DNA from: an archaeon
GTDB lineage: Archaea; Asgardarchaeota; Heimdallarchaeia; Heimdallarchaeales; Kariarchaeaceae
Assembly: GCA_024280435.1 (NCBI GenBank)
Contig: JAJRQD010000109.1
Location: 1,879-65,878, forward strand
Direction: 5' to 3'
Length of the DNA: 64,000 nt
In this document: positions 3,029 through 61,560 of the stretch, piece after piece
Position numbering within the stretch: the stretch's first letter is position 1
How the letters are laid out: every line of letters starts with the position of its first letter
The notes under the pieces: generated by a model
What the model was told of the DNA's origin: nothing
What the model saw: only the letters and a program-made list of their open reading frames with translations
Database searches by the model: none
Translations under genes and position numbers: made by a program

Positions 3029-3191
3029 TTTGAATCCTCTTGCATAAATGAACCCATTAAAGTTTATAAAGGTTCTTTAATATAATTTTATTTTTAACAA
3101 TATATCTAAAATCAATTAGCTTTAATGTTCAATGCTTTAAATTGAATATTATATTTTTCAATACTAATAAATCAGTCCGCATTTCTCTGGA

Positions 3192-18214: not shown

Positions 18215-19554
18215 ATGAAAGATGAAAAAAAAGAAAAACAGAAACTCTCCCTGTTAGGATCTGTATCACTTGGTACAGGAGTAATGATTGGAGCAGGTAT
18301 TTTTGTCCTTATGGGTCAAATAGCAGAACTAGTAGGTGGTTTATTTCCAATTGCTTTTCTAGCAGGTGCAATAGTTGTAGGATTTAGTTCTTATTCCTAT
18401 GTCAAATTCTCTAATACTTATCCATCATCAGGGGGTGTTGCTAAATTTTTAACGAAATCATATGGTCCAGGTACTGCAACAGGTACTTTCTCAATATTAA
18501 TGTATGTATCCATGGTTGTGGCTGAGAGTTTAGTTGCAGGTACATTTGGTACTTATACATTGAGACTTTTTCCTGAATATGCATCCTATGCTTCAGTTTT
18601 AGGTGTATTACTTATTGCAGTTGCATTTATCATCAACATATCAGGTAACAAATTTATAGAGGCAACTGCTGCCATCACGGCAATAATCAAAGTATCAGGA
18701 ATTGCCTTACTTGCCATTGTAGGCCTCATAATTTCAGGTTTTCCAAGTTTATCAGTAAATACTGTGTCTCAAAATGAACAGGTACTACCTGGATATCTCA
18801 GTTTTGTTGCTGCATTACTTTATCTATTCTTGCATATAAAGGGTTCACAACAATCACAAATCAGGGAGGTGATATCATTAATCCAAATAAAAATGTTGGT
18901 AGATCAATTATCATCTCTATCGTTATTTGTACTGTAATTTATATCCTATTAGCCTTATCAGTAGCAGGAGCACTGAGTGTTTCTGAAATTGTTATTGCTA
19001 AAGATTATGCATTGGCTGAAGCGGCAAGACCTGTCTTTGGGGAAAAAGGAACTTTATTAGTTATTTTACTTGCGATCATAGCTACTGTTTCGGGGGTGAT
19101 TGCCAGTGTATTCTCAGCTTCTAGATTGCTTGGAATGTTAAGTAAAATGAAACAAGTACCAAATCTAAAGATAGGGGGATTTAGTAACCCCGCACTTATT
19201 TTTACAGTCGGTCTAGCAATGCTTCTGACTATATTGTTTGATCTTACTCAAATTGCATCAATAGGGGCTATTTACTACTTAATTATGGATATTGCCATCC
19301 ATTGGGGTCTTTTCCGTCATCTGAAGAAGGAAGTTAAATTTAATCCTGCAATCCCATTGATTGCCATAGTAATGGATATTACTATTTTAGCAGCATTTAT
19401 CTATATGAAATATATAATTGATCCTTTTGTTCTGATAGTATCATTGATAGGTTTAATACTAATTATCATCAGCCAACGCCTTTTTATGATCTCTCATACA
19501 GATAGTGAAGGAAAAATGCATATGGGAATGGATGAAGATGATATGAAGATGTAA
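18215..19554 (+). pseudogene. APC-family amino-acid permease interrupted by a frameshift
   Basis: ORFs 18215..18937 and 19012..19554 are two halves of one permease. The second frame already reads LAYKGFTTITNQGGDIINPNKNVGRSIIISIV from 18829. The frames join at about 18827-18832 (..LYLF|LAYKGF..), which is equivalent to a 1-nt deletion. Confidence 0.8.
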
Positions 19555-30303: not shown

Positions 30304-30870
30304 TTAAAGCATATTATTTAGCATCATTTCTGTAATGCTTTTAAAAGCCGATTCAATATTTGAACAAGTTTTAGCACTTGTTTCAACATATTCTATATCA
30401 AAATGAGGAAAGTTTTTACCCCACTCCCTAAGTACATTAATATAATTCTCAATTTCTTCTTGCAAAATTTCTCTTGAACCATTATTTTCACATAGATCAA
30501 TTTTATTACCCACAATTAATAAGGGAACCATAAAATTATCTGTATTTTTCATATATTCTTCAATCCAATTTGGTATATTCTCAAAACTTGATTTACTAGT
30601 TAAATCATAAACTAGGATTAAACCAGAAGAATTCATATAATATTTATCCCTAACAATTGAAAACCTTTCTTGACCTGCTAGATCCCAAATTTGAAGAACT
30701 ACATTTTTATTGTCAACTTCAATAGCTTTTACAGCAAAGTCAGCACCTAAAGTAACTAGATATTCTTTATCAAAGTTTTGACCAAGATACCTCCTACGTA
30801 TTGATGATTTGCCAACATTTGCATCTCCCATTATTATTAATTTGAATATTGTTTTACTAGTGAAGTTCAC
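30304..30870 (-). CDS. Ras/Rab-like small GTPase
   Basis: The G motifs are G1 GDANVGKS, G2 TLGADF, G3 WDLAGQE, G4 GNKID and G5 ETSAK. There is no C-terminal prenylation Cys. Confidence 0.9.
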   Translation of the reverse strand: MNFTSKTIFKLIIMGDANVGKSSIRRRYLGQNFDKEYLVTLGADFAVKAIEVDNKNVVLQIWDLAGQERFSIVRDKYYMNSSGLILVYDLTSKSSFENIPNWIEEYMKNTDNFMVPLLIVGNKIDLCENNGSREILQEEIENYINVLREWGKNFPHFDIEYVETSAKTCSNIESAFKSITEMMLNNML

Positions 30871-31893: not shown

Positions 31894-32457
31894 ATGAAAA
31901 ATATTATTCTAAAGCTAGTATTAATAGGAGATGGAAGAGTTGGAAAAACATCGATTCGTAAAAATTATATGGGTTATGGGTTCACAAAAAGTCATTTATC
32001 AACATTAGGTGCTGATTTTTCAGAAATATCAAATAAATTTAAATTTGGAAATGATGAAATTAAAGCTAAATTACAAATTTGGGATGTTGCAGGTCAAAAC
32101 AACTTTCAAAAAATAAGATTAAGATTTTTAACTAGAGCATCTGCAATCATATTAGTATATGATATAACAAATATGTCATCTTTTCAGAATTTACCAAATT
32201 GGCTAAAAGAAGTTTGGTCTGTGAATAAATCAAAAGATTTGCCCATATTGATACTAGGTAATAAAATTGATCTAGAAGAAGATAGGGAAGTTCCTTATAC
32301 TTTAGTTGAAAAATTTAAAAATGATCTAATTGATAAATTAAAAGAGAAAGTTGAGATAATTCATATTGAAACAAGTGCACTAACAGGTCAAAATATAAAA
32401 CAAGGTTTTGAAACAATCACTTTATCATTCTACAAGAATTTGTTAAAAACGCAATAA
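31894..32457 (+). CDS. Ras/Rab-like small GTPase
   Basis: The G motifs are G1 GDGRVGKT, G2 TLGADF, G3 WDVAGQ, G4 GNKID and G5 ETSAL. Confidence 0.9.
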   Translation: MKNIILKLVLIGDGRVGKTSIRKNYMGYGFTKSHLSTLGADFSEISNKFKFGNDEIKAKLQIWDVAGQNNFQKIRLRFLTRASAIILVYDITNMSSFQNLPNWLKEVWSVNKSKDLPILILGNKIDLEEDREVPYTLVEKFKNDLIDKLKEKVEIIHIETSALTGQNIKQGFETITLSFYKNLLKTQ

Positions 32458-40277: not shown

Positions 40278-40868
40278 ATGCGTTTAAACAAAAATTACCA
40301 CCAATATATTAAAGATACAGTTTACATGTTAACATGGTTGTCTAAAGTTTCAAATAAAACAAAAATTGTGTTAATTGGCGATTCGAGGGTGGGAAAAACA
40401 TCTCTTAGACGGCAGTATATGGGTGATTCGTTCAGAGGTACGTATAGTGCCACTATGGGGGCAGAATTCAGTGTCAAGAAATTAAAAGATAATATCATAA
40501 CAATCTATGATCTTGCAGGAGATCCAAAATCCAAAATATTCCGAATGCAGTATTATCCGGGTACTCAGGGAGTATTAATGGTTTTTGATGTTAATTCTAG
40601 GAATTCATTTGAAAATATACGTGTTTGGATTGACGAGATCAGAGAAAATATCAAATCTCAGCTTGTCATATTTATTCTTGGTAATAAAATAGATCTTTTT
40701 GATAATTCATTGGATCCAGTAACCGAGGTTGAGGCGTATAAACTGAGCAAAGAGCTCGAAGAAGAATTGGGGTGCTCTGTATCCTATTTATCTACCTCTG
40801 CCTTAACAGGTCATAATGTAGATGTTGCGTTTTCTAAAATACTTGCTGAGATCCAATTCAGATATTAA
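40278..40868 (+). CDS. Ras-like small GTPase lacking the catalytic Gln (G3 = DLAGD)
   Basis: The G motifs are G1 GDSRVGKT, G2 TMGAEF, G3 YDLAGDP, G4 GNKID and G5 STSAL. An alternative start is the ATG at 40326. Confidence 0.85.
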   Translation: MRLNKNYHQYIKDTVYMLTWLSKVSNKTKIVLIGDSRVGKTSLRRQYMGDSFRGTYSATMGAEFSVKKLKDNIITIYDLAGDPKSKIFRMQYYPGTQGVLMVFDVNSRNSFENIRVWIDEIRENIKSQLVIFILGNKIDLFDNSLDPVTEVEAYKLSKELEEELGCSVSYLSTSALTGHNVDVAFSKILAEIQFRY

Positions 40869-40958: not shown

Positions 40959-41576
40959 ATGGAGATTTCTGAATTAAGGGGGTTATTAATTGGCTCAAAA
41001 GCAACCGGAAAGACCACTTTCATAAGACGTTTATCTAGAACTAAAAAGAGTGAGTATGGTTTGACTATGAAATCAACAGATTACAATATTGAATTACAGA
41101 TTCCAAAAAGAGATGGAAGTGTAGTTTCAGTATCGGTAATAATCTCAGATACTCCTGGACAGAGGGATTTTGCATATCAATCTTTCTCAGATGGTATAAA
41201 AACTGATTTTATTGTGATGTTCTATGAGACAAATACACTGGATACTTTTAATCAGTTATCAATTTGGCTTGCTGATATTAAAAATCTAGGTATAATAAAA
41301 AATCGTAAATTACCAATATTCTTTGTAGGTAATAAAATTGATCTCAAGGATGATAGAATGATTTCAGATCAGTATATAGAGGCATTTTTGGATAGTTTCA
41401 AAAAAAGATACAATTGGGATGCACCGGTACAGCATTATTTTATCTCTGCAATTGATTCCAGCACTTTAGATATACTAACAGTACTAAGAAGGATGTTTGT
41501 GATAACTTATAAGCATATGAAGGCATTTAATATTCAACCAACACAGGAAATTTATAGATTAGGAGGATTTACATGA
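40959..41576 (+). CDS. Divergent small GTPase (Roc/Arf-like G3)
   Basis: The G motifs are G1 GSKATGKT, G3 DTPGQ, G4 GNKID and a G5-like ISAID. Its stop overlaps the LRR gene start (ATGA). Confidence 0.75.
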   Translation: MEISELRGLLIGSKATGKTTFIRRLSRTKKSEYGLTMKSTDYNIELQIPKRDGSVVSVSVIISDTPGQRDFAYQSFSDGIKTDFIVMFYETNTLDTFNQLSIWLADIKNLGIIKNRKLPIFFVGNKIDLKDDRMISDQYIEAFLDSFKKRYNWDAPVQHYFISAIDSSTLDILTVLRRMFVITYKHMKAFNIQPTQEIYRLGGFT

Positions 41577-42379
41577 ATTTAGATAATTTGGATCCAGAGA
41601 CTGTGTCAATAATTAAAAAAGAGATACATGGAATGACTTATCTTAATCTTGGAGGGTATAAACTTGATAAGATACCAGATTTTGTATTTGATATGGATAA
41701 TCTTGGTTATCTTGACTTATCCTACAACAATTTATCAGAGATAAATGAGATCCCATCTGATTTGATCTATCTATCAATCAGATACAATAATATCAAATAT
41801 TATGATTTTGCAAATAAAGGTTTGAAAAGAATTATTTTAGAGGGAAACAGAATAAATGAAGTACCACTGATCAATTCTGATAACTTACTTGCGATTAATT
41901 TATCATTTAACAAGCTGGAGCAGTTTCCAGAATTAAAAACTAAAAATCTAATTTTACTCAATTTACATGGAAATAGAATTTTTCATGTGCCAGATGATTT
42001 GTGTAGACTGAGTAATCTAGTCAAATTATATTTGGGTTTCAATAAAATAGAGAGATTACCGGATTGTTTTGGAGAACTTCAGGATCTCAAATTTTTCAGT
42101 ATTCAATCTAATAATTTACTTGAGATACCTGCGAGTACATTCAAGATATTCAGGCGAATACATTTTGATTTTTCAAATAATTATGAGTTGAGAACACCTT
42201 TGAATGATATTAATTCTATGTCTCTGGTGAATTACGGTGTGGAAGCACCTTCTATCAATGTATATTCAGATCCCAAGTTAAGAGAGAATACTAGAAAAAG
42301 ATCCTCTGACAATGTAGAGTTTCCATGGGAGAAGGAGATCGCAATCAAAGAAGAATTATACAGAAGAATCATGATCTAA
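41573..42379 (+). CDS. Leucine-rich-repeat protein, translationally coupled to the preceding GTPase
   Basis: There are about 8 LRRs, for example LGYLDLSYNNLSEI, LLAINLSFNKLEQFP and LVKLYLGFNKIERLPDCF. AGGAGG lies 6 nt upstream of the ATG. Confidence 0.85.
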   Translation: MNLDNLDPETVSIIKKEIHGMTYLNLGGYKLDKIPDFVFDMDNLGYLDLSYNNLSEINEIPSDLIYLSIRYNNIKYYDFANKGLKRIILEGNRINEVPLINSDNLLAINLSFNKLEQFPELKTKNLILLNLHGNRIFHVPDDLCRLSNLVKLYLGFNKIERLPDCFGELQDLKFFSIQSNNLLEIPASTFKIFRRIHFDFSNNYELRTPLNDINSMSLVNYGVEAPSINVYSDPKLRENTRKRSSDNVEFPWEKEIAIKEELYRRIMI

Positions 42380-45224: not shown

Positions 45225-46505
45225 ATGAGTACTGTGGAGGAACAATACAACAAATTACTGCTTGAGAGTAAGTTACTGCAGGAGAATAATCTGAATAGAT
45301 ATTTGGAGAGATATAAGGATAGTTTCATTGATAATCTTAATAAGGGAATTGTTGATCTATCAGATAGAAATTTGAGTATTATTCCCATGTCATTATTAGA
45401 GATGGATATCAGAGAACTTAATCTCAGGAATAATAACTTTGAGATATTACCGGATAGTTTTGGAAAATTTAAAAATCTTGAGAAACTGGATCTCGAAAAT
45501 AATCAACTCACCACCTTACCAGATAGTTTTGGACAACTGCAAGAACTCTGGAAACTAGATCTCGGTAGTAACCAATTCACCACATTACCGGATAGTATTG
45601 TAGAGTTAGAAAATCTAAAGAAACTATATCTCAATAATAATAAACTGAGTACATTACCAGATAGTATTGGACAACTGCAGAATCTTGAGAGACTATATCT
45701 CGATGATAATCAACTCACCACAATCCCGGACAGTATTGCACAACTGCAGAAACTTGAGAGACTAGATCTCTGGGGTAATCAACTCACCACATTACCGGAT
45801 AATATTACACAATTGAAAAATCTGGAATTGCTAGATCTCAGTAATAATCAACTCACCACAGTACCGGATAGTATTGGACAACTGCAAAAACTTAGAGAAC
45901 TATATCTCAGTAATAATCAACTCACCACAGTACCGGATAGTATTGTACAACTGCAAAATCTTAAGAACCTAAATCTAAAGAATAACCAATTCACCACATT
46001 ACCCGAAAGTATTGCACAACTACAGAAACTTGTGAGACTATATCTCAGTAATAATCAACTCACCACAATCCTGGACAGTATTTCACAATTGAAAAATCTG
46101 GAATTGCTAGATCTCGAGTATAATCAACTCACCACATTACCTGATAGTATTGTAGAGTTAGAAAATCTAAAGAAACTATATCTCAGTTATAATATACTGA
46201 CCACAATACTGGACAGTATTGGGCAATTGAAAAAACTTGAGATACTGCACCTTATTAGAAATCAATTAACATCATTACCGGATAGTTTTGGACAACTGCA
46301 AAATCTTGCAGAACTGAATCTAAGGGAAAATCAATTGACCACATTACCAGATAGTTTTGTAGAGTTAGAAAATCTTAGGGAATTAAATCTCGAGAATAAT
46401 CAACTGAGCTCAAGACCAGATTACATTGATGATTTGAATTATCTTGAGGAATTATATCTAGATGGTAATAAATTCTATACAGATAAATATTTACCTGATA
46501 TTTAA
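45225..46505 (+). CDS. Leucine-rich-repeat protein with about 16 consecutive 23-residue repeats
   Basis: The repeat consensus is LxxLxLxxNQLTTLPDSIGQLQN, the same type as Roco/SHOC2-like LRRs. Confidence 0.9.
   Translation: MSTVEEQYNKLLLESKLLQENNLNRYLERYKDSFIDNLNKGIVDLSDRNLSIIPMSLLEMDIRELNLRNNNFEILPDSFGKFKNLEKLDLENNQLTTLPDSFGQLQELWKLDLGSNQFTTLPDSIVELENLKKLYLNNNKLSTLPDSIGQLQNLERLYLDDNQLTTIPDSIAQLQKLERLDLWGNQLTTLPDNITQLKNLELLDLSNNQLTTVPDSIGQLQKLRELYLSNNQLTTVPDSIVQLQNLKNLNLKNNQFTTLPESIAQLQKLVRLYLSNNQLTTILDSISQLKNLELLDLEYNQLTTLPDSIVELENLKKLYLSYNILTTILDSIGQLKKLEILHLIRNQLTSLPDSFGQLQNLAELNLRENQLTTLPDSFVELENLRELNLENNQLSSRPDYIDDLNYLEELYLDGNKFYTDKYLPDI
45400..46440 (+). repeat. Array of 69-bp coding repeats (LRR units), some nearly identical
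   Basis: 45577-45633 and 46129-46185 differ at 1 of 57 nt. Confidence 0.85.
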
Positions 46506-48580: not shown

Positions 48581-51500
48581 TTAGATATTTATTTTTACTG
48601 GAATAATAAGATTTGATGTAATTAGTATGAATATCATCTCTATTTGATTATAGGAGCTATCAAATTCAATCTTATCATTAATTATTACAATAACTGAATT
48701 TGTTATCTCTTGGTTGAATGAATATATTTGATACAATTGAGAATTGATATCAGGAGATATTTCAGATGTGACAGTTGAGTTTATCTCGGTATCTGTGCTG
48801 AGATTTTCTACCTCATTAGAATCTGAATATCTATCTTCTTCTGAATTTCTATCTTCTTCAGAAGTTGAATTATACACAGTATCATTTTGATATGCTTTCT
48901 CATCTAGCTCATCAGAAAGATCTAGCTCATCCGAGATATCTGTATTATCAGAAAGATCTATATCATCCGAGATATCTGTACTATCAGAAAGATCTATATC
49001 ATCAGATAATTCGTCGTAATCGTCATATTCATAATCCAAATCATCATCATCTGCAAAATCATGCTCATCCTCATGGTCATCATCATGGTCTAATTTTATT
49101 TCCAAAGAATCGGGGATAAGATTTTTATTGGTATCTCCAGATCTAGGGTCCAAACCAATTGATAATTCAAATTTATCCGAAATTTTATCACCATCAGTAT
49201 CAAAATTACTAATGTCTGTCTTCAATGAATTTATTCTTGAAAAGCCTTCCAGACCATCAATTATGCCATCACCATCTTGATCTCCACCTCTGACAACAAT
49301 TGCAGGTAGATCAACTCTATGATCGTCATCATGGTCTTCTTCATAATGATTATGGTAATATTCATCCTCATGATCTTCTTCATGATGTTCATCATCACAG
49401 TGTTTTTCATCGTGATCATCATCACAATCAGGTCTTCTATCAAAATGTAATTTATCATTCCAACTCTCGATATACTGAAAACCCCAGTTATCAAATGATG
49501 AGCTATCAAGGAAATTATTCACTATTACACTCACCTCACCAGAATTCACAGTTAACCATGAATGTTGACCGAGATCACTTGATGTCCAGAATGCACCTGT
49601 CATCTCTCTTGTCTGAGATCTTGGATTATATGAGATACCAAAGAAATTATTATTCCAGATCACACCAAATTCAAAATCACTATTCGTAAAAGTTGATGCT
49701 GGTTGTCTGAAATTCACATAAGATCTTTTTTCCTGCCATCCACTACCTTGATTCTCAAAGAATGTGAAGCCTGGACGACGACCTAGATTGATTAATAAAT
49801 CAGCATCTCCATCATCATCATAATCCACAGCTTGTAGCTGTTTCACAACTCTTGTGAATTCATGCAGACCGATATGGCTAAGACCATACTCTACATCACC
49901 AAAATATCCTGGAATATATTCAAAATATCCATTGCTTGAATTTCCTGTGTACTGTAAATACATAAAGTTATTCTGTGTGATGAATAATAGATCATCAAAA
50001 CTATCTCCATTGAAATCAGCAGAGACAAATTCAATTACCGCATTAGATCCGAGTAGGTTCATCAATGCATCATCTATCACTGTGGTGTTGATATAATCAG
50101 TCAGCACATATTCATCTGATACAAATTTCCATATATCAATCTGATTATCTCTGTACACAAGCAACTCTGGAATACTATTTTCATATATTGATGAGAAGGT
50201 GAGCATTACTCTTCCCTGATAGTAATTATCCACATTGTATAATTCTGGAACATCCTGTATTCCTTTATTATTGGTATTGTATGGATCAAGAAGCATCTTG
50301 AAACTACCATCATAGAAATACAGATTATTTTCTGCATTATCATTTGCAGAATTACCAAAATCAGGTCCCAGCATAACTTGATCATACTTGTCAAGCTCAT
50401 CTTCTAGATTTTCAAAGCTAAATTGAGGGTTGATCCAGTTGTTAACACTCTTGTAATTAGGATTTGGAACTACATCCCAGCTACCATAATTACTCTGTGT
50501 AAATAATTGGTCCTCATATGAATTTGAAAACTCAAGCATACTTGGATCCCAACTATTAACCCTGGAATTTGAGCTGAAACCAATCATTTTACCCTCTGTG
50601 GTACTCATGAATAATACCGGTGTGTTATTATCAGGTACCTCATCAAAGAAGATACTTCTGACACTTGACATCCGGAGATTTATTCTCACAGCCTCGATTG
50701 ATTCTATCCTTAGATCAACTGTTGTGTTTGAGGATAAAGAGAGATATCTTACATAATTCCAGTGTCTCTTGGATACCATGGGATCAATATCAATATGAAT
50801 AGTCTTATTATCCTCAGACATCCATATATTTAATTTACTATCACAATGATGTTCCTCACAATCATCATCTTCTCTATCATCATCAAATTCTGAATAATCA
50901 TCATCATGCTCATCATCATGCTCATCATCATGTTCATCATCATGTTCATCATCATGCTCATCATCATGCTCATCATCAAGATCTTTCATCAGTTTTATCC
51001 GAATATCTGATAAACTACCATTAAATGCTTCTGCAAGATTGATATTTATATCAGACATTGAATTACCACCAGCTACTACTTCCTCTATGTTTCCAAAATC
51101 AACTGTGATGTTTGCACCATTACTGGCCAATGAACTGAAATGATTATCAGGTGCATTCTCAAGTCCACTCGTGAAGGGTGAGATCACATTTCCAGGATCT
51201 AACCAACTCATAGGTTCTGTAATAATACCATTGAAAGTAACATTACTTGCAGATAATAATATATCAGCATAATTGTCTATTGGATAAGCTCCGGTTCTTT
51301 CCCACAGATATGGATTTAATGTGATTCTATCAAGATAGAATTGATTGCTGACTGTATCATAATCAAGTAACATAACATCCTGTCCTCTGGCAAGTATCGC
51401 CACCTCTTCAGTACCATCCTCATCAATATCAGCAGATTCTAACTGGATGATTGATTTCCACAGAGTTGTGGTATCCTCCCATATACGCTTGAAACATAGA

Positions 51501-52426
51501 TCAAAGTTTACTTTATCATCATCATCATCATCATCATCATGAGACTTTGATTTGACAGTCTGATCACATTGATTCTTCTTTTTATCATCATCATCATCAT
51601 CATGATTAGAATTGATCACAGCAGTAGCATTACTCTTCTCATAGATCAGAATACCACCATGCTTCAATCCAATAATAATATCAAGCAAACCATTATCATT
51701 CAGATCACCTGTGGTTACTGATAATGCACGATCTTTCAGATTATCAGTTCTAAACCTCTCATTATACTGTTCCCACATACTATTCTTGGAATCAAATTGT
51801 ACGGGATCAATACCAAATATATGTACTCGGTTTTTGGATGACGCAACAATGATCTCTCTGAATCCATCATTCTCTATATCAACTATCTCTATATCCCACA
51901 TATCATTGGAGAATATAGATTTCCATACCAGATTGAATACTGTTTTGTCAATCTGTTGCTCAAATATATAGACAAATCCAGATGAACTTGCTATCGACAG
52001 ATCCAGAATACCATTGTTATCAATATCTGAGAATTCAAGATCAAGTACGTTTCCCCGGAATTTAGTCTCATCAATTCTTGTGAATAAAATATATTCCTCA
52101 GTTAAAGTATCCCATTTATAGATAAGAACAGCTTTGATCTGATCATTTGAATGAAATCTAGTACCCACTGCAAAGTATTGACCATCCTCTGTCATTGTAA
52201 CTGATTGTATCTGATCTTTTATCTCCTTATGATCTGAGCCTTTATCATCCTGTGAACTCAGTTTAAATGCAGTATCTGCACTTATAGAAGCAGATTCAGA
52301 TAAATTTCCATCTGCATTAATTAACCCTGCAGATGAACTCTGTGAAAATACAAGTATCATCATCAGAACTACTGTCAGAGTCAATTTAAGTAGATCCTTA
52401 AATTTATTAATTCTTATTTCTCTCAT
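48581..52426 (-). CDS. Giant secreted FG-GAP/integrin-alpha-like repeat protein with His/Asp/Cys-rich inserts
   Basis: It has a signal peptide (..VFSQSSSAG) and six or more FG-GAP-like Ca loops. The acidic tracts are (DDEH)n, poly-D and DCDDDHDEKHCDDEHHEEDHEDE. It has TSP3-like DTDGDKISD and a hydrophobic C-terminus. GGAGG lies 8 nt upstream of the ATG. Confidence 0.85.
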   Translation of the reverse strand: MREIRINKFKDLLKLTLTVVLMMILVFSQSSSAGLINADGNLSESASISADTAFKLSSQDDKGSDHKEIKDQIQSVTMTEDGQYFAVGTRFHSNDQIKAVLIYKWDTLTEEYILFTRIDETKFRGNVLDLEFSDIDNNGILDLSIASSSGFVYIFEQQIDKTVFNLVWKSIFSNDMWDIEIVDIENDGFREIIVASSKNRVHIFGIDPVQFDSKNSMWEQYNERFRTDNLKDRALSVTTGDLNDNGLLDIIIGLKHGGILIYEKSNATAVINSNHDDDDDDKKKNQCDQTVKSKSHDDDDDDDDKVNFDLCFKRIWEDTTTLWKSIIQLESADIDEDGTEEVAILARGQDVMLLDYDTVSNQFYLDRITLNPYLWERTGAYPIDNYADILLSASNVTFNGIITEPMSWLDPGNVISPFTSGLENAPDNHFSSLASNGANITVDFGNIEEVVAGGNSMSDININLAEAFNGSLSDIRIKLMKDLDDEHDDEHDDEHDDEHDDEHDDEHDDDYSEFDDDREDDDCEEHHCDSKLNIWMSEDNKTIHIDIDPMVSKRHWNYVRYLSLSSNTTVDLRIESIEAVRINLRMSSVRSIFFDEVPDNNTPVLFMSTTEGKMIGFSSNSRVNSWDPSMLEFSNSYEDQLFTQSNYGSWDVVPNPNYKSVNNWINPQFSFENLEDELDKYDQVMLGPDFGNSANDNAENNLYFYDGSFKMLLDPYNTNNKGIQDVPELYNVDNYYQGRVMLTFSSIYENSIPELLVYRDNQIDIWKFVSDEYVLTDYINTTVIDDALMNLLGSNAVIEFVSADFNGDSFDDLLFITQNNFMYLQYTGNSSNGYFEYIPGYFGDVEYGLSHIGLHEFTRVVKQLQAVDYDDDGDADLLINLGRRPGFTFFENQGSGWQEKRSYVNFRQPASTFTNSDFEFGVIWNNNFFGISYNPRSQTREMTGAFWTSSDLGQHSWLTVNSGEVSVIVNNFLDSSSFDNWGFQYIESWNDKLHFDRRPDCDDDHDEKHCDDEHHEEDHEDEYYHNHYEEDHDDDHRVDLPAIVVRGGDQDGDGIIDGLEGFSRINSLKTDISNFDTDGDKISDKFELSIGLDPRSGDTNKNLIPDSLEIKLDHDDDHEDEHDFADDDDLDYEYDDYDELSDDIDLSDSTDISDDIDLSDNTDISDELDLSDELDEKAYQNDTVYNSTSEEDRNSEEDRYSDSNEVENLSTDTEINSTVTSEISPDINSQLYQIYSFNQEITNSVIVIINDKIEFDSSYNQIEMIFILITSNLIIPVKINI
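50899..50978 (-). repeat. 12-bp tandem repeat x6.5 encoding (EHDD)n
   Basis: catcatcatg(c/t)t units run at 50899-50970, with a partial unit after them. Confidence 0.9.
51515..51603 (-). repeat. Two (ATC)n trinucleotide runs encoding poly-Asp
   Basis: (atc)~8.5 lies at 51515-51540 and (atc)~6.5 at 51584-51603. Confidence 0.9.
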
Positions 52427-52428
52427 AA

Positions 52429-55400
52429 TTAGGACCTCCCTGTGAATATTTTCTTCCGAATTACTGGAACTGCAACCACCCCGAGTATGCCACTACCCAC
52501 CAGAATTGCACTTATCAGACCAAACTGATCCAATAAATTAACCGGTATAGTAGCATTGACCGAGAAGATAATCACATCACGATAAATATCTCCAGAAGAT
52601 GTGGACACAAATGCCTCAAGGATATACGTACCCTCATCAAATTTTGCATCCAGATCATACCATAAGCCAGGGTTTGTCTTCTCATAGTATGATAGTGTTG
52701 TATTTGCAGAGAAAGTACCAACTATATTTCTATACCTGTACCAGGATCTATCCACATTTGTAATATTAAATACCACAATTGCCAACTCTCCATCTGAATT
52801 CTGATACTCTGTATTGGCAAACGGAGAGAGTATCATCAATGGACCCTGAAATGATGCAAGAATTGCATCCATCTCACTCTCACTAGTATATACATTGGGA
52901 TCTGACAACACTATAATCTCGAATCCATCCGAAAATGTATCATTATCACTATCTGCCCAATCTGGCCTTGTATTGTAGAGATATACCTCATCTCCATCAG
53001 AGATCGTATCTTTATCCACATCTGGATCAAATACTGCCCAGTCATTTACCTCAACAGTAGGATACTCTCCAGAATATTCTAATCCATCTTCCAATCCATC
53101 TAGATCCAGATCTAGATCCAGACCATCTATAATTCCATTATTATTGACATCATCAAAACCAATTTCAGGAGAGAAAGCAGGAAAGTTAGGCTGATATATT
53201 ACCAGCTCTGGACCGTCAGGAAGCATATCTTGATCTGTATCTGCTTCCCAAGAGTAGGTATTATAGTATTGCACAGTTATATTTCTAACGACATAATCCT
53301 TCGGAAGTATATCCCTATCAATAGTAATCTGCATAATACCACTATCTCTAATTGCATCGAAATCCACATTAGGATAATGTACAAACTCAGTCTCCGACTT
53401 TTTCAATAACTCAAGTGAATCAATTATCAAATCACCATCTGTATCTGCATCAATCGGCGATAAATCAAGATAAGTGTAATATTCATCAAAATCAAGAATC
53501 TGATCACCATCACTATCTGGATTATTTGCCTTGGATCCATTCAGAACCTCAGTTTGATCATCTACACCATCAAAATCTGTATCTCTAAGCACTGCAGATG
53601 AATTATATGGTTCTGAAATATCAACAATCAAGTTAATACCATCATCTGAAATATCAATATTTAACTCTTCCCCGTCTTCTAGCGAGTCACCATCTGTATC
53701 AGCAGAATTTGGATCTAGTGCATATGTAACTGATGCTAGACCACTGGCAAGATATATCTCCTCACCATCACTCAATCCATCAAAATCTCCATCTGGGTTA
53801 TTAGGATTGGTATTGGTATTGAATACCTCCTCATAATCATTCAGATTGAACAGATAACTACCATCTGGATTGAGAATACTATCTCTATCTGTATCTGCCT
53901 CAAGTGGTGAGGTTTGATAAACAAATATCTCATCATAATCTGAAAGTTTATCCAAATCTGTATCTGCTGAATTTGGATCTGTACCATAGATGTATATCTC
54001 ATTTCTATCCGAAATTCCATCATTATCCAGATCAGTAGAGGTTGGACTAATGCCCAATTCTACTTCCTCACCATCCAAAAATCCATCGGAATCAGTATCT
54101 TGCAGTAATGGATCGCTACCATAGATATTTACTTCATCAAAATCACTCAATCCATCAAAATCACTATCTGAGGATCTGAGGTTGGTACCAAGTACATAAT
54201 ACTCATCATAATCTGAAAGTTTGTCCAAATCTGTATCAGCAGAATTGGGATTAGAGCCCAGTAGTACCTCTAATCGATCATTTAATCCATCTCGGTCGGT
54301 ATCTGCATCGTATATATCTGTGGAATTGCTGTTTTCAAATTCATCAATTAGGCCATCATTATCAAAATCTCCAGATAATGGATCAGTGGGTATTTGATAC
54401 TGATAATAGAGTTCATATCCATCACTGACCATTACCACACCAACTCCTCCAGGACCGGTATCTGCATCAGAATCAGCCCTTGTTGGATCTGTGTAGAAAG
54501 TACGTGTAACATAATCACCACCTTCGATAATAGTTGCAGTGATACCTCTTATCTCAACACCATCTCTCATATCACCTAGATATGTTCTTGATGGTAGTAT
54601 CTCACCAGAATATGCCTGCATATATGAATCATCATCTGTATCATTATCCAATGGATGAGTATATCCTTTGTTCCAGATCATATCAGTCTCATTTGAATAT
54701 GGTACATATGGTTTATCTCCACCATAATATGGCCCATTCTTGCCTTCCTGGCCGTCCAGAAGCATATCATTATCAGTATCTGGATTCAGAGGATCTGTTT
54801 GGTTGTAATATACTTTACCACCAATTATCACTGAATTCACACTGGGTGTGATTCCAGACATGTCATATACGTAATTTATCTCAAAATAATCTGTAAGCCC
54901 ATCTCGGTCGGTATCTGCGTTAAGTGGATCTGTACCGTAGATTGATACCTCTTCATAATCAGTTAATTTATCATAATCACTGTCTTTACGCAGTGGATTT
55001 GTATTTAAAGCGATTTCAACTGAATCAATTATTCCATCTCCATCAGAATCTGGGATTGTGGGGTCTGTCATATAGAATTTCAGCTCTTCTTTGTCGCTCA
55101 GACCGTCACCATCTGTATCACTGGAGGTTCTGTGTAGAGATTGTATATCTTTGATACTATTTTTGTCATAATTAAGTACGCTCAGACTAGATCCATCTAG
55201 ACTACCGATGTTTAGGCCGGGGAATCTTCTCTCATATTCATCAGGAATACCATCATAATCGTTGTCATAGCCCATACCACCATTTTTCAGTACATCATCT
55301 CTTTTCTTGGGAGATAGATCAAATGGTCCGAATGGTTCTAGTACAGCTCTCCAACGCCATGTTTTCTTCTTGAACAGGAATTTTACTGTAATAGCAGCTT

Positions 55401-56460
55401 CTAGAATGATTAGTATTCTGAATATTATTCTGAGTGGTTGAGTTCTTCTGATGAAGTCCTGATCGAATGTCAATACTAGTCTTATTCCAGCGTAGAAACT
55501 AAGTTTAGCACTTGCGATAAATAGGTTCACCCCGATTGATAATCGTATACCTGCTTCAATCAGGAATCTTAGTATTGCGATACCACTTGCAGATGTTGTC
55601 GGGGTATCTGCTCGCATAAGTATCACCAGGTCTATTCCAAACTGAATTCGTAGTACTAATAGATCAAGACCGATATATCCTGCCAATCTGCTCATGAATC
55701 CACCTCCCAGACCTCCGGTGAATAGATCAAGTATTGTGATATCTCGATATATTCGTATACTGATTTCTAATCCCCATGCGATAACTTTCAGGAATGATTG
55801 AGAATCAAATCCATTGGCACCTAGTTCAAATAATTGTATTGCAAAGTATGCATATCCGGAAAATTCTATATTTACACCTAGTAGTGCCAGTAGTATCTCA
55901 AATATTCCACTCTCAGAGGTAGCCAGTTGTTTCAATCCAAAGTTACCAGATATCACGGGTGCGATCTTGAGGAATGATAATATTCTCTTAAGCATTCCAC
56001 CGAGATCCAGTCCACTGAGTACATTGCTTCCATCGAATAATAGTGAGATAATGAAATCTCTCAGTCCAATTCTGTCAAAATCAATGTTTGCAGTTATTTC
56101 GAAACTATATGAGAATTCAAATAATGTGAATGGTCCGAAGCCAATAGGCATCTCACCACCAATACTGAAGAATTTGAATTTATCAAACAGTACATTTAGT
56201 TTCTCAAGTAAATTATCAATTATATCAGATAGTATTGTTGCCATCCATCTTTTCAATTCATTGATTAGCCATCCAATTCCATCCTGGAAGAATTCCACTG
56301 CACTTGGAATTAGATCAATAAAGAATTTGACAGTATCAAATGCTTCTGGAGATAATAGTCCCTGTAGTGTATTGAGCACGTATGGTGTGAGATCCTGCAT
56401 TATCTGTTCTAGTGATGGTAATTCCACTTTGAATTTATCATCAACTAATCCTTTGAACAT
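52429..56460 (-). CDS. Giant thrombospondin-type-3-repeat protein with hydrophobic N-terminal domain and C-terminal TM anchor
   Basis: It has about 25 DxDxDGxxDxxE repeats and the C-terminus ILVGSGILGVVAVPVIRKK. It has no signal peptide and no SD. It is in frame with the upstream ORF across a single TAG. Confidence 0.85.
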   Translation of the reverse strand: MFKGLVDDKFKVELPSLEQIMQDLTPYVLNTLQGLLSPEAFDTVKFFIDLIPSAVEFFQDGIGWLINELKRWMATILSDIIDNLLEKLNVLFDKFKFFSIGGEMPIGFGPFTLFEFSYSFEITANIDFDRIGLRDFIISLLFDGSNVLSGLDLGGMLKRILSFLKIAPVISGNFGLKQLATSESGIFEILLALLGVNIEFSGYAYFAIQLFELGANGFDSQSFLKVIAWGLEISIRIYRDITILDLFTGGLGGGFMSRLAGYIGLDLLVLRIQFGIDLVILMRADTPTTSASGIAILRFLIEAGIRLSIGVNLFIASAKLSFYAGIRLVLTFDQDFIRRTQPLRIIFRILIILEAAITVKFLFKKKTWRWRAVLEPFGPFDLSPKKRDDVLKNGGMGYDNDYDGIPDEYERRFPGLNIGSLDGSSLSVLNYDKNSIKDIQSLHRTSSDTDGDGLSDKEELKFYMTDPTIPDSDGDGIIDSVEIALNTNPLRKDSDYDKLTDYEEVSIYGTDPLNADTDRDGLTDYFEINYVYDMSGITPSVNSVIIGGKVYYNQTDPLNPDTDNDMLLDGQEGKNGPYYGGDKPYVPYSNETDMIWNKGYTHPLDNDTDDDSYMQAYSGEILPSRTYLGDMRDGVEIRGITATIIEGGDYVTRTFYTDPTRADSDADTGPGGVGVVMVSDGYELYYQYQIPTDPLSGDFDNDGLIDEFENSNSTDIYDADTDRDGLNDRLEVLLGSNPNSADTDLDKLSDYDEYYVLGTNLRSSDSDFDGLSDFDEVNIYGSDPLLQDTDSDGFLDGEEVELGISPTSTDLDNDGISDRNEIYIYGTDPNSADTDLDKLSDYDEIFVYQTSPLEADTDRDSILNPDGSYLFNLNDYEEVFNTNTNPNNPDGDFDGLSDGEEIYLASGLASVTYALDPNSADTDGDSLEDGEELNIDISDDGINLIVDISEPYNSSAVLRDTDFDGVDDQTEVLNGSKANNPDSDGDQILDFDEYYTYLDLSPIDADTDGDLIIDSLELLKKSETEFVHYPNVDFDAIRDSGIMQITIDRDILPKDYVVRNITVQYYNTYSWEADTDQDMLPDGPELVIYQPNFPAFSPEIGFDDVNNNGIIDGLDLDLDLDGLEDGLEYSGEYPTVEVNDWAVFDPDVDKDTISDGDEVYLYNTRPDWADSDNDTFSDGFEIIVLSDPNVYTSESEMDAILASFQGPLMILSPFANTEYQNSDGELAIVVFNITNVDRSWYRYRNIVGTFSANTTLSYYEKTNPGLWYDLDAKFDEGTYILEAFVSTSSGDIYRDVIIFSVNATIPVNLLDQFGLISAILVGSGILGVVAVPVIRKKIFTGRS
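52919..55273 (-). other. Thrombospondin type-3 (Ca-binding) repeat region
   Basis: Examples are DTDGDGLSDKEE, DSDGDGIIDSVE, DTDRDGLTDYFE, DFDNDGLIDEFE, DTDSDGFLDGEE and DSDNDTFSDGFE. Confidence 0.8.
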
Positions 56461-56463
56461 TGT

Positions 56464-59400
56464 CTATGCAAGTCGAATGAAGTAAATCACTGCAAAATCA
56501 TCAATTCCTCTATCTGCAAGAGTTTTCTGTATTTTTTCCATCACAAGATTGATTGTGAACAGTCCTAGTGATCTGAGAATACCACTTATTGATGTCTCAG
56601 TATCAAATGATGAGCTTATCAGTGATAGAATGAAAAATGGTATTTCACCAACAATTAGACTAAGTCTGTCATTCTGTGTTTTGGATAGAAGTGAGGTTGG
56701 TATTCTGCTGAATAGTTCAGCAGTTACGTCTCTCAGGAATTCAGATGATTTTATTCTTGCCTCTTCTAGTGCCTGTTGTGGTGTTAATGATCCGGATGAA
56801 GCGATGATCATGGCTAGTGAGGGGGATTCCTTCAGTACTGCTAGAATATTCAATACTCCAGGTATGACAAACGTCATTATAGTCTCAATAGAAGTTCTTA
56901 CACTATCATTCACATCTTTCAGGAATAATTTCAGTCCATCTCGAATGAGAGAATCTAGATTTGCAGTTGTCAATGTCCTCAGAGGAGAATTGAAGTCTGC
57001 AATTTTACTTACCAAAAATCTTAGTATATCACCAATAAATGCTCTTGTATCAAGATCAATGGAGGTCAATCCACCAATTACAGTATCAATAATAGTATTG
57101 GCTATTGTATTCTCATTTATAGTACCATTTAGAACTGATTTTACCAGTTCCACATAATCTTTGATTTTTGATTGTAAATCAGGTGCTGATAATCCAGTAG
57201 CTGTGTATACAGAGCTGAATAATTTATCAATTGCCTCTGATATTGGGAAATTCTCCAGAAATGATTTTGCATCCTTGATTCCACCCAGTTTACCTGCGAT
57301 CCAGTATGCTAACTTGCCTATCTCAATCAATGGCTTGAATGCATCAAGATATTTCTGTATGAATGTATTGGTGTCAATTGGGTCGATAGCAAGTGGTTTG
57401 ATAAATGATGTACTGATGAAGTTAGTGCTTACCTGATCTATTTTATCAGGATTGGATGTGAATCCGCTGACACTTACTCTGATAGTATTATATCCTGTGT
57501 TAGAAGGATCTGGTGCTGAATCATTATAGTATGCCATTCCATCTATATCTTTTGAGAACATTATATTTCTGAAGTCAAAAGTATTTAGAGTTATCTGATC
57601 AACTCGCATCACTACTCTGACATCAAAAATTGATGAATTACCTGGAATTGCAAATGATGCAGATACAGGTCCATTAGATCCGGGTGCCCATGTATATGGT
57701 CCATCCACAGTGTAATTGAATGTTGATACAAGTTCAAAATTATTATTTAATCCATCCTTATCCACATACACATCAAAGAAATAATTCTCATCCAATAATC
57801 CATTATCACTTACCACATCAACAAATTCTAATTGTACAGTCACAGTATCTCCCTTGAGAAATAGTTGCTTACCCTGTCCACGTACCTGATATCCAAGCTC
57901 CTTGAAGACGATATCAATGACTGATGGTAGTGTAACCAGTTCCTGATGAGAACCTTCTATCTCATAATTTGTGGCACCAACAAGAGCTGGAGAATCTGTT
58001 GGGACTACTCCATCAAATCTGTTCAGGTACCAGGGATTTCCACCAAAGGTGATATAATTCTCTCCTGGTGGTTCCTCATATCCAAGTGCTTGTAATAATG
58101 GGCTTCCTGGTATCATATCATCAGCAGATGCAGCCCAATCGTCATAGAATAGATTTGTAGATCCTATATATGCCTCCCATGTTCCATGATTAGGTGTACC
58201 ATGCATAAATAATCTATCCACTCTTGCAGCCCAGGTATCATCAATATTTGGATCACTAGGACCTGCTTCCAGTAAATATCGGGAGATCAATCCACCATAG
58301 GAATATGCAATAATATTAATCTTTTCATTTACATCTACTCTTGCATTGATTAGATCCTCTACTTGATTTGCAAGCTGTGAGGTATTAAGATTGCCAGTAC
58401 CCAGTGTGGCATCGTATGTCAATGCCTGTGTACCGGGTAAATTATCATCAAAATCAATCACCTCAATTCCCTGAGCCTCTAGAATAGCAATCATAGTATT
58501 GAAGACAGTGGGATCACTTCTCCATCCTGGTATCATTACAACTCTTGGTACGGGTATTGCAGGACCTTTTCCCTGTGCAAAATATTCTGCCACTCCATTG
58601 GCAATTGATAGTCCAGCCTGTGTCTTATTTGCTGTGTACTCAAATTTTGCCCTGTCCTGTGGGTTGGTAATAAAACCTACCTCTACAAGTGCCTGTGGTA
58701 TTGTTGGTGTACCTCTGATGACTGCAAAATTAGCTGTTTTCACACCTCTTGGATACATATCAAGATCTGCCACCATATTGCTGTAAATCTCTGTTGCAAG
58801 GTCTCCACCATATTGATTATCTGTATGATAGTATACCTCATGTCCTCTTGCATTTGGTCTCACAGTACCATTATCAAATTTGAATGCATTGAAGTGTACA
58901 CTGATAAATGCATCTGCATAATCATTCACACCATCTAAATTTGTATCATTAGCAATTCTAGCTCTGGTTTTAAGATCATCTGAAATGCTGGCATTGAAAT
59001 TTTTATCAGTCTCTCTTGTCATCACCACATTTGCACCCAGATTTAGGAGTGCATCCTTCAATTCTAGTGATACATCAAGTGTCCAATCTTTTTCATAAAG
59101 TATCGTTCCATTTGTGTATTCAAAATATGCACCATTGTAAATACCTCCATGTCCCGGATCAACTACTATTGTTCTTCCTATAAGTGGATACAGATTTGGA
59201 ATTAACTCTGTAAATATCAGATCTGGAAGTACTTGATCAATATATTCAGATGAATCCTGTGTTTGGAATACTCCCAGCATGGATTTGAATACAGATCCAA
59301 GTACTGATTTTACTCTTCCGAGAAATGTCTGATCTGTGGAACTTGTAGTTGCAGTATTTGCAAGTGTGGATAATTGGCTCTGATTCGTTACCACTTCTTT

Positions 59401-60792
59401 AATATCAAATTTTAACCAACTTTTGAATATCTGATCAAGAAAGTTATCAAGAACTAGATTTGAAATCCAGGATAGTATAGCCTGGAATACATTCTCTCCA
59501 TCACTAATTTTCTTTATCAGTACTGCCAGTTCATCGTTAAGTATTGCCTGTGCAATTGCCACAACAGTGGAATTAGCAGGGAAAAATTCTTTTATCATTT
59601 TCAGTGAGAAGGCTATTATCTCCTCAGGTCCACCTCTTAGTGCATTGAATCCCTCAAGAGCTATCTCTACATACCTTCTGTACTCACTGAATCCTGGAAA
59701 ACGCTCAACTATTATATCAAGTGCTAATCCTAGAATATTATCTACACTGGGATCATTGATTATGCCCAGTACTTTTGGTATATATTTCATTATTTCATTT
59801 ATCTGATTAACAACTTCTGGGGATAATTCCACATATTGAACATATTTTAGTAAGATACCAAGTAGAGTATCCAGTACCTTTCCAGCAGGTCCCTCGATAC
59901 CAGTTTTAGTTGGTATATTTGCAATTGTGAAATCACTCTGTGCATTATTTAGTACCAATCCATATTCATTTTTATTGATAAGAGACTGAGTAACCGCCTC
60001 ATAGAGAGGAATAGATACACCAGCAGGAGTTAGGTAATTAGCAGTTCTTGGACTTGCATCCATGATATTATCAAATCTATCCTGTTGAGCTACTTTATCT
60101 ATCTGTCCGATAGGATTTACGGGTTCATAACTTCTCTGTACCATTTCATTGATATTCTCAGAGAAATATTTCACAACCAATGCTCTGATATGATCTGCGG
60201 ATGTTCTATATTCATCATTAGGTGCATTTTCAGCTATATAATTACCAACCAACCAGATTGCATTGACTACTGCCAATTTAGCATCTGTCATCTCAGTCTG
60301 ATCATCAACTAGAGATGCATATTGTATTGCAGCACCCAATCCAGCAGTTGCCTGTCTTGTATTTGCCATTGAAAGTATATGCTGCTTATCTGGATAATCT
60401 AAAATGTATTTGGCCAGTTCAGACCATTCATATGATTTACCACCAATAATTGGTCCATCAATATTTGTATCATATACATGAATAACTATCCAGTATGATG
60501 AATCAATACTGAGTAAATCTGTTATCTGATCAATCTCGAATAAATCAACTGGTTGATAGAATGGTGATAGGAATTGCTCGATTCCATTTGCCATATCATA
60601 AGCCTGTGTATCTTTAGAACTGTATGCAATGGCAATCTTCTTATCAAATACGGGTACAACTTTTAGTAAATCCTCTGGATCTGTAATCTTAGCAGCTTCT
60701 GCAGTATTTGCTGCTGCCTGTACAGAGTAGAAACTACTCAGTATGAGTAGAATTATAATCATTATCGTAAATGAGATTGTTTTGTTTTTCAT
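56464..60792 (-). CDS. Giant secreted protein with MurNAc-L-alanine amidase and lipase-like alpha/beta-hydrolase domains flanked by helical modules
   Basis: It has a signal peptide (..SSFYSVQAAANTAEA). For the domains see 58580..59175 and 57920..58545. It ends in TAG. Confidence 0.85.
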   Translation of the reverse strand: MKNKTISFTIMIIILLILSSFYSVQAAANTAEAAKITDPEDLLKVVPVFDKKIAIAYSSKDTQAYDMANGIEQFLSPFYQPVDLFEIDQITDLLSIDSSYWIVIHVYDTNIDGPIIGGKSYEWSELAKYILDYPDKQHILSMANTRQATAGLGAAIQYASLVDDQTEMTDAKLAVVNAIWLVGNYIAENAPNDEYRTSADHIRALVVKYFSENINEMVQRSYEPVNPIGQIDKVAQQDRFDNIMDASPRTANYLTPAGVSIPLYEAVTQSLINKNEYGLVLNNAQSDFTIANIPTKTGIEGPAGKVLDTLLGILLKYVQYVELSPEVVNQINEIMKYIPKVLGIINDPSVDNILGLALDIIVERFPGFSEYRRYVEIALEGFNALRGGPEEIIAFSLKMIKEFFPANSTVVAIAQAILNDELAVLIKKISDGENVFQAILSWISNLVLDNFLDQIFKSWLKFDIKEVVTNQSQLSTLANTATTSSTDQTFLGRVKSVLGSVFKSMLGVFQTQDSSEYIDQVLPDLIFTELIPNLYPLIGRTIVVDPGHGGIYNGAYFEYTNGTILYEKDWTLDVSLELKDALLNLGANVVMTRETDKNFNASISDDLKTRARIANDTNLDGVNDYADAFISVHFNAFKFDNGTVRPNARGHEVYYHTDNQYGGDLATEIYSNMVADLDMYPRGVKTANFAVIRGTPTIPQALVEVGFITNPQDRAKFEYTANKTQAGLSIANGVAEYFAQGKGPAIPVPRVVMIPGWRSDPTVFNTMIAILEAQGIEVIDFDDNLPGTQALTYDATLGTGNLNTSQLANQVEDLINARVDVNEKINIIAYSYGGLISRYLLEAGPSDPNIDDTWAARVDRLFMHGTPNHGTWEAYIGSTNLFYDDWAASADDMIPGSPLLQALGYEEPPGENYITFGGNPWYLNRFDGVVPTDSPALVGATNYEIEGSHQELVTLPSVIDIVFKELGYQVRGQGKQLFLKGDTVTVQLEFVDVVSDNGLLDENYFFDVYVDKDGLNNNFELVSTFNYTVDGPYTWAPGSNGPVSASFAIPGNSSIFDVRVVMRVDQITLNTFDFRNIMFSKDIDGMAYYNDSAPDPSNTGYNTIRVSVSGFTSNPDKIDQVSTNFISTSFIKPLAIDPIDTNTFIQKYLDAFKPLIEIGKLAYWIAGKLGGIKDAKSFLENFPISEAIDKLFSSVYTATGLSAPDLQSKIKDYVELVKSVLNGTINENTIANTIIDTVIGGLTSIDLDTRAFIGDILRFLVSKIADFNSPLRTLTTANLDSLIRDGLKLFLKDVNDSVRTSIETIMTFVIPGVLNILAVLKESPSLAMIIASSGSLTPQQALEEARIKSSEFLRDVTAELFSRIPTSLLSKTQNDRLSLIVGEIPFFILSLISSSFDTETSISGILRSLGLFTINLVMEKIQKTLADRGIDDFAVIYFIRLA
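57920..58545 (-). other. Alpha/beta-hydrolase (lipase/PGAP1-like) domain
   Basis: It has VVMIPGWRSDP, the nucleophile elbow IIAYSYGGLISRYL, and downstream FMHGTPNHG and GVVP..S. Confidence 0.6.
58580..59175 (-). other. N-acetylmuramoyl-L-alanine amidase (Amidase_3) domain
   Basis: It has VVDPGHGG, DVSLELKD, RARIAND, AFISVHFNAF and ALVEVGFITNPQD. All expected Zn-ligand and catalytic positions are present. Confidence 0.8.
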
Positions 60793-61225: not shown

Positions 61226-61560
61226 CGCTCTGCTGATGACTCCATTGATTCTATTACATTCTCTGGGGCTACTTTTCCCATTATTGCTCCATTAATTTAT
61301 CTCCACAGCTATTGCACCTGTGTACTCTGTTTGCCTTATAGTTCCACAGTATGTCTGCGAGGTGTAGCCCTCATCTACAAACTCAATGTTAATTCCATAG
61401 AGCACACATTTACTCCTCAGATTATCCTTGAATTTACCATATAGTATTTTGGGCTCTGTCAGCAACAGTGAAATATTGATAAAGTGAAATTAAATAGTAT
61501 GATACACAATCTTCATTCACGCTTATTCAGCAAGAAATCATTGTTTTCCAGGAAATAAAA
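61226..61560 (-). pseudogene. tnpB: Decayed IS200/IS605-family TnpB fragment
   Basis: The minus-strand frames read ..LENNDFLLNK.., ..YGKFKDNLRSKCVLYGINIEFVDEGYTSQT.. and ..RCNSCGDKL... These are interrupted by stops and frameshifts. The plus-strand ORF 61214..61444 is its antisense shadow. Confidence 0.5.

Follow-up and report, generated by a model that had tools for sequence, protein, structure and literature searches.

In a 64,000-nucleotide stretch of the archaeal contig JAJRQD010000109.1 (assembly GCA_024280435.1; positions 1,879 to 65,878, hereafter the window), two long open reading frames (ORFs) of the minus strand, ORF1 and ORF2, are separated only by a TAG stop codon and one further codon. 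Comparison with a closely related sister assembly and with homologues from other Asgard archaea indicates that ORF1 and ORF2 are very probably one gene, coding for a giant surface protein, which is interrupted by a non-programmed point change, be it a real mutation or a base error. Programmed readthrough, decoding of the stop as pyrrolysine (Pyl) and a functional split into two genes are improbable even when taken together.

The minus strand at 56475..56455 was read directly from the window as ..CGA CTT GCA TAG ACA ATG TTC... ORF1 comprises the N-terminal 1442 codons and the TAG (60792..56464, sense part 56467..60792), and ORF2 comprises the C-terminal 1343 codons and a TAA (56460..52429). The TAG at 56464..56466 is followed at 56458..56463 by ACA (Thr) and the ATG from which gene callers start ORF2; in the homologue alignment this Met is an internal residue. 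The distance between the two start codons (60792-56460 = 4332 = 3 x 1444) places both ORFs in a common frame, and translation of 60792..52429 gave 2788 codons with just two stops, one at codon 1443 (the TAG) and one at the end (the TAA). Frame arithmetic and translation therefore agree with a preliminary description of this DNA, made from the sequence alone, according to which ORF2 continues the frame of ORF1 with the TAG and one codon in between. Its other observations on ORF2 were confirmed as well. A motif check upstream of both start codons found no GGAGG-like (Shine-Dalgarno) motif in the 40 nt preceding the ATG of ORF2, whereas the ATG of the next gene, ORF3, has GGAGG 8 nt upstream, at 52439..52435. 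ORF2 has no hydrophobic segment before approximately residue 262 and thus no signal peptide, and it contains TSP3 repeats and a C-terminal hydropathy peak, in line with extracellular-type repeats and a C-terminal anchor. ORF2 and ORF3 are 2 nt apart, a tight spacing that is typical of this cluster.

The evidence for a single interrupted gene comes in the first place from a sister assembly. The cluster of ORF1 at 90% identity has four members, namely ORF1 and ORF2 of the window, a spurious 57-aa entry and P0046, a single protein of 2777 aa from the NCBI assembly GCA_024278115.1 (its contig is locus L001). P0046 runs across the junction as ..FIRLAETMFKG.. (longer stretch ..VIYFIRLAETMFKGLVDD..). 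The L001 contig is syntenic with the window and about 99.8% identical to it across 21.5 kb. When the 8364-nt genes of the two contigs were compared from their shared upstream ATG, no indels were found, and in L001 the gene is one uninterrupted ORF. On the basis of translation and collinearity with L001, the whole ancestral gene is placed at 52429..60792 (minus strand), with 2787 sense codons and a TAA, and with one TAG interruption in the window. The two genes differ at 17 positions, of which 12 are synonymous and four are missense; the remaining one is the TAG of the window, which is GAG (Glu) in the sister assembly. No difference other than this G/T occurs in the 63 nt that surround the junction, and the premature stop corresponds to a single G-to-T change at window position 56466, in the reading of the minus strand. 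The four differences located 3' of the TAG are all synonymous, and the downstream part appears to be free of any sign of long-term decay.

Over the whole shared 21.5 kb the window and L001 are distinguished by about 41 substitutions and three indels. The first indel is 1 nt long and intergenic, the second is an in-frame change of 42 nt (14 aa) in the acidic His/Asp/Glu repeat of ORF3 (window ~49423), and the third is an in-frame change of 69 nt that corresponds to one 23-aa unit of a leucine-rich repeat (LRR) gene (45225..46505, window ~45966). As judged from these comparisons, the differences have the pattern of genuine strain-level variation. It was also observed that surface or repeat proteins (ORF3 and the LRR gene 45225..46505) differ in length between close strains. 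No additional strains were recovered from the metagenome contigs of JGI, either with an exact DNA pattern carrying N at the variable base or with a protein scan.

More distant homologues gave the same picture. A word-indexed protein search with a junction-spanning query returned no match, and exhaustive searching with HMMER was needed; its query consisted of ORF1 aa 1132-1442, X, T and ORF2 aa 1-399. This search yielded 45 homologue clusters. Three of the homologues, P0002 (2179 aa, 43% identical in the query region), P0003 (2162 aa) and P0004 (2146 aa), aligned in one stretch through the junction, and for P0002 a single BLASTP high-scoring segment pair of 1651 columns crosses it. The fused ORF1 and ORF2 sequence aligns with these three proteins from end to end save for one insertion. 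The column of the TAG is spanned by 35 of the 45 cluster representatives, which extend for 300-1260 residues ahead of it and 170-3554 behind it, and all 35 have a sense residue there: K in 11, Q in 10, E in nine, and I, V, N, G and S in one each. This column sits within a conserved motif, roughly [IL][LMF][EQK]x[FL][FL]P. None of the representatives in the 45-sequence alignment starts at the Met of ORF2. A few start further downstream at scattered positions, which looks like truncation at contig ends. At the column of the ORF2 start, P0002 likewise has M and most other homologues have another hydrophobic residue (L, F, V or A); this Met is thus a fortuitous occupant of an internal hydrophobic core position. 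ORF2 lacks a Shine-Dalgarno motif and a signal peptide because its start is an internal codon.

Genomic loci of the family were collected by scanning contigs. With a single junction protein as query the scan had no match, and an alignment of ten sequences was too divergent to seed; the productive scan used a six-sequence alignment that included the TSP3 core and was seeded with GYTHPLDN and DTDDDSY. It recovered 63 loci, 59 of them in Asgard-type metagenome-assembled genomes (MAGs) at E <= 5e-18, and four weaker matches of 83-129 residues in bacterial MAGs. Most MAGs are labelled Heimdall-, Thor-, Hermod-, Hod-, Njord- or Promethearchaeota and others 'archaeon' or 'uncultured archaeon'; besides the four bacterial MAGs, a few bear the labels Bathyarchaeota, Nitrososphaerota and Coatesbacteria. 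Among the sources of the loci are two complete genomes (CP084166 and CP084167), the chromosome-level CP070695 and Harpocratesius FW102, a single contig of 4.36 Mb. In all 45 Asgard loci with enough flank, closed genomes included, the frame is open across the position equivalent to the junction. Counted upstream from a point 167 aa past the junction, the open frame extends over 868-1070 codons in 44 of the 45 loci and over 336 codons in the remaining one, L012, where the junction is still covered. In L012 (CAZLEV010000003.1, 7083..13621) the family gene is broken elsewhere by a change of frame that leaves products of 683 and 1492 aa. This break is an independent sporadic disruption or an assembly error at a site unrelated to the junction of the window, and sporadic breaks of this long gene at unrelated sites thus occur in MAGs.

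The preliminary description had offered three explanations for the junction. The first, according to which one protein of 2787 aa has been split through nonsense mutation or sequencing error, is strongly supported by the GAG of L001 and by the uninterrupted state of all homologues and of the 45 loci. Two separate orthologous genes, the arrangement that would speak against it, were not found in any homologue or locus. The other two explanations, readthrough with a short and a long isoform and termination followed by reinitiation, are not supported and are considered below.

One rival reading holds that ORF1 and ORF2 persist as two translationally coupled genes and that their products are assembled post-translationally. 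The short distance between stop and start speaks for it: the spacing of +3 nt is within the efficient range of reinitiation in Haloferax volcanii, where a native pair is coupled at +1 nt, 40-60% of coupling is kept at 13-14 nt and coupling is gone at 22-23 nt (PMC10666635); the junction between ORF2 and ORF3 is just as tight. The junction resembles archaeal termination-reinitiation sites (Huber et al., PMC6728339, PMC10666635) in its very short stop-to-start distance, and its ATG has no Shine-Dalgarno motif. However, native coupled pairs are conserved, mostly overlap by -4 or -1 nt and code for subunits of complexes (PMC6728339, PMC10666635), whereas in the window a point change divided one gene, and none of the relatives has the pair. 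None of the homologues has a gene boundary at the junction or a conserved two-gene pair in its place, and the ATG of ORF2 is a fortuitous internal codon. Moreover, ORF2 has no signal peptide and yet its TSP3 repeats and anchor are of extracellular type, so that a separate product could not reach its place. Finally, the split postdates the separation from the sister strain (0.2% divergence) and is too recent for an adapted arrangement. An evolved pair of genes is for these reasons highly improbable. Some translation of ORF2 by reinitiation, as a by-product of the interruption, is nevertheless plausible by analogy with the haloarchaeal system.

A further possibility is that the TAG is decoded, by pyrrolysine, by a suppressor tRNA or through leaky termination, giving both a short product and the full-length protein. 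The frame 3' of the TAG is fully open and undecayed, and the TAG column tolerates K, Q, E and other residues, so that the substituted residue would probably be harmless. Pyl machinery with frequent UAG stops is present in one class of Asgard archaea, the Sifarchaeia (PMC9723677). As in Pyl (UAG) decoding, including that of Sifarchaeia (PMC9723677) and the neutral gain of Pyl at tolerant sites, the window has an in-frame TAG in an otherwise intact Asgard ORF, at a position that tolerates Lys-like or polar residues. The similarity does not go further. Neither the nearest strain nor any homologue has the stop, which is therefore neither conserved nor programmed, and the conservation of TAG in orthologues that marks pyrrolysine codons is missing. 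Nor is TAG avoided or ambiguous as a terminator: it ends five of the 43 tabulated ORFs of the window, and in the other four it is followed by a TAA within 0-8 codons and by no coding continuation. The occurrence of such a 'backup' TAA was considered as a possible signature of Pyl usage and rejected, since by an estimate from base composition a chance stop is expected about every 12 codons in intergenic DNA of 30% GC. Nowhere else in the window does an in-frame TAG part two long ORFs.

Components for decoding or stimulating the stop were likewise not seen. The 64-kb window contains no tRNA gene, and thus no tRNA-CUA, and no Rfam match, and no Pyl-related Pfam family was found in the 41 of its 43 tabulated ORFs that were scanned, a result that refers to this window only. 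The 131-nt RNA of the junction does not fold into an unusually stable structure (minimum free energy z = -0.64; 51 of 200 shuffled sequences fold at least as well). Neither the conserved stop nor the conserved stimulatory context or downstream RNA structure of programmed readthrough was found. The protein is not a methylamine methyltransferase, in contrast to known Pyl systems. The nearest relatives are labelled Heimdallarchaeota, although NCBI labels are loose and the window has no phylogenetic marker, whereas among Asgard archaea the Pyl machinery is reported to be restricted to Sifarchaeia (PMC9723677). Judged against a 99.8%-identical sister strain without the stop, a conserved programmed signal is what the TAG cannot be. 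A fresh TAG that happens to be read through at a useful rate, giving a released 1442-aa fragment with the amidase module described below together with the full-length anchored protein, is extremely improbable, as is recoding of the TAG in general; if true, the read-through TAG would be a newborn recoding site within 0.2% divergence of a sense-codon ancestor.

A single gene with a non-programmed interruption may owe its stop either to a mutation or to the consensus. In the latter case the organism would have GAG or another sense codon and make the intact 2787-aa protein, and the T would be a miscalled base or a minor variant. This is compatible with a single-base difference from a 99.8%-identical contig, with the otherwise intact ORF2 and with downstream differences that are synonymous only. 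A second gene of the window is broken by a frameshift, which possibly reflects an imperfect consensus: an APC-family amino-acid permease (18215..19554, plus strand; Pfam AA_permease_2) changes frame near 18,800-18,850, and its ORF 18215..18937 covers positions 1-190 of AA_permease_2 while the other frame (ORF 19012..19554, extended upstream) covers positions 197-403. Related MAG contigs are tagged with a very low coverage of 2-5x, and the family gene of L012 is broken too, in a different place. On the other hand, the remaining approximately 40 differences between the window and L001 carry the signature of real polymorphism, being mostly synonymous and with coding indels in frame and in repeats, and the TAG does not lie in a homopolymer or repeat. 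Among the differences in a short-read consensus, substitution errors should be far fewer than real variants. We regard an error of sequencing or assembly as doubtful, and consider the TAG to be probably a recent, real nonsense allele of the strain or population.

Several caveats apply to this reading of the junction. Adjacency in the same frame is by itself a 1-in-3 event and would, taken alone, say little; the window contains a second in-frame pair, an ABC transporter followed by a histidine kinase, parted by a single TAA at 36421. The junction between ORF1 and ORF2 is meaningful because of the homology evidence and not because of frame-sharing by itself. Repeats common to the C-terminus of ORF1 and the N-terminus of ORF2 were also considered as evidence of continuity and rejected; the continuity of the two ORFs rests on the homologues because BLASTP showed no internal similarity across the junction. 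With only four differences downstream of the TAG, all synonymous and none missense, neither decay nor constraint can be demonstrated. The broken permease fits an error-prone consensus and a genome that accumulates pseudogenes alike, and from assembled sequence alone a real allele and an error of the consensus base are indistinguishable. Finally, the truncated and unanchored product of ORF1 still carries the amidase module and may keep some function.

Premature stops and base errors in long genes are ordinary events. As in other long prokaryotic genes for surface proteins that carry a premature stop, or an error of a MAG consensus, one substitution (GAG to TAG only) accounts for the interruption, the orthologues are intact and continuous, the downstream part is undecayed, and gene callers report two in-frame ORFs, the second from the first internal ATG. 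Nothing of note separates the case of the window from an ordinary nonsense allele or a young pseudogene.

If the TAG is a real nonsense allele, its consequences may be proposed as follows. The change of GAG (Glu1443) to TAG would fall within a conserved helix, and ribosomes would stop at codon 1443 and release a product of 1442 aa. This product would keep the signal peptide, the N-terminal domain and the amidase-hydrolase module, and would be without the beta-rich domain, the TSP3 array and the anchor, so that it would be secreted and not retained on the cell. Some ribosomes may restart at the ATG 3 nt downstream and make a 1343-aa product without export signal, which would remain cytoplasmic or at most become tail-anchored. 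The intact function would thus be lost or much reduced.

The fused 2787-residue protein has a composite architecture. In ORF1, a signal-like N-terminus is followed by an N-terminal domain, a helical region, an inserted module with Amidase_3 and hydrolase-like parts, and a second helical region. ORF2 continues with the end of the helical region, a beta-rich domain with a TGGxGGG motif, TSP3 calcium-binding repeats, a beta domain and the C-terminal membrane anchor. The signal-peptide-like N-terminus (MKNKTISFTIMIIILLILSSFYSVQAA; 60712..60792, minus strand) was recognized by its hydrophobicity and is comparable to the N-termini of P0002 and P0003; the whole protein has no export signal other than this segment of ORF1. 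The C-terminal hydrophobic anchor corresponds to fused aa 2753-2781 (52450..52536, minus strand; hydropathy peak 2.41) and is followed by RKKIFTGRS. The conserved beta-rich domain (ORF2 aa ~120-390, within 52429..56100, minus strand), delineated by alignment and by an AlphaFold2 model (m72ae48991993), is preceded by the helical region and followed by the TSP3 array, shows near-invariant G, W and D positions in addition to TGGxGGG and is common to the aligned members of the family.

The AlphaFold2 model of the junction region, which has a modest mean confidence (pLDDT 66) and was used only to place the TAG in a helix upstream of the beta-rich domain, has the TAG codon within a helix (fragment residues 56-66) that is followed by long helices and then by a long-stranded beta sheet; the beta-rich domain is modelled with long antiparallel strands of 13-23 residues. 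According to this model, the break would fall inside a folded region and not at a linker. A Foldseek comparison with the PDB gave only weak beta-barrel or lipid-transfer-like matches (TM-score <= 0.26).

The fused protein has the build of a family whose members consist of an N-terminal domain, a helical region, the TGGxGGG domain, a TSP3 array containing GYTHPLDNDTDDDSY and an anchor in one polypeptide of about 2100-2300 aa. On this evidence it is a member of an unnamed family of giant TSP3-repeat surface proteins found across Asgard archaea. Matches of NCBIfam models to CglD (7.9e-37) and MtsD were below the curated cut-offs. Like CglD and MtsD of Myxococcus, the protein of the window is a large cell-surface protein with long TSP3 calcium-binding arrays; this likeness is confined to the repeats, and the N-terminal domains, the TGGxGGG domain and the anchor of the Asgard proteins set them apart as a separate family. 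The protein of the window, unlike proteins of the CglD/MtsD type, also bears the inserted amidase module. This lineage-specific insertion of about 590 aa (ORF1 aa 554-1144; 57361..59133, minus strand) was delimited by Pfam/NCBIfam matches and BLAST gaps, and pairwise comparisons with P0002, P0003 and P0004 show a gap at its position. It carries an N-acetylmuramoyl-L-alanine amidase domain (Amidase_3, ORF1 aa 542-735, E = 5.7e-38, CwlD-like) and further a DUF7379/DUF676-like hydrolase region and a beta domain. In a local BLAST search the insertion segment had no match in the 44 other cluster representatives or in the 63 loci.

ORF3 (48581..52426, minus strand), which was assigned FG-GAP and acidic repeats from domain matches and has its own GGAGG, is the partner gene of the interrupted gene. 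A family gene followed within a few nt by a large ORF was found in L003, L048, L026 and L012; the family genes of L003, L048 and L026 are single ORFs of 2073-2205 aa with a second giant ORF a few nt on. According to ORF listings the cassettes extend over 146..10907 in L003, 7166..21396 in L048, 7058..21378 in L026 and 48581..60792 (minus strand) in the window. The second ORF has 1281-2699 aa and is separated from the first by a few nt or overlaps it by 1 nt, and in the copy of the window it contains FG-GAP repeats. This arrangement suggests that a giant TSP3-repeat surface protein and a giant FG-GAP partner form a two-gene cassette conserved across Asgard lineages. The apparent operon of three ORFs in the window would then be this two-gene cassette with its first gene cut.

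Upstream of ORF1, a spacer of about 1 kb that is rich in AT contains a TnpB/Cas12f-like remnant without intact ORF (~61292..61468, minus strand; Cas12f1-like TNB domain, E 3e-07, ..GINIEFVDEGYTSQTYCG..). Elsewhere the window codes for four Ras-family small GTPases (30304..30870, minus strand; 31894..32457, 40278..40868 and 40959..41576, plus strand) and for LRR proteins (11312..11896, minus strand; 41573..42379 and 45225..46505, plus strand). Many two-component sensors are present as well; together with the GTPases and LRR genes they represent typical Asgard-archaeal content, which matches the taxonomy of the homologous loci.

In an annotation, the pair is best merged into one gene of 2787 codons and flagged as interrupted by an internal stop (56466..56464); ORF1 and ORF2 should be treated neither as two genes nor as a candidate for recoding. 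The missing Shine-Dalgarno motif, the missing signal peptide and the shared frame proved to be good indicators of a broken gene. Of more lasting value than the junction are the protein family, the two-gene cassette and the amidase insertion. An archaeal surface protein that displays a peptidoglycan amidase module of bacterial type could bear on interactions with bacterial partners.

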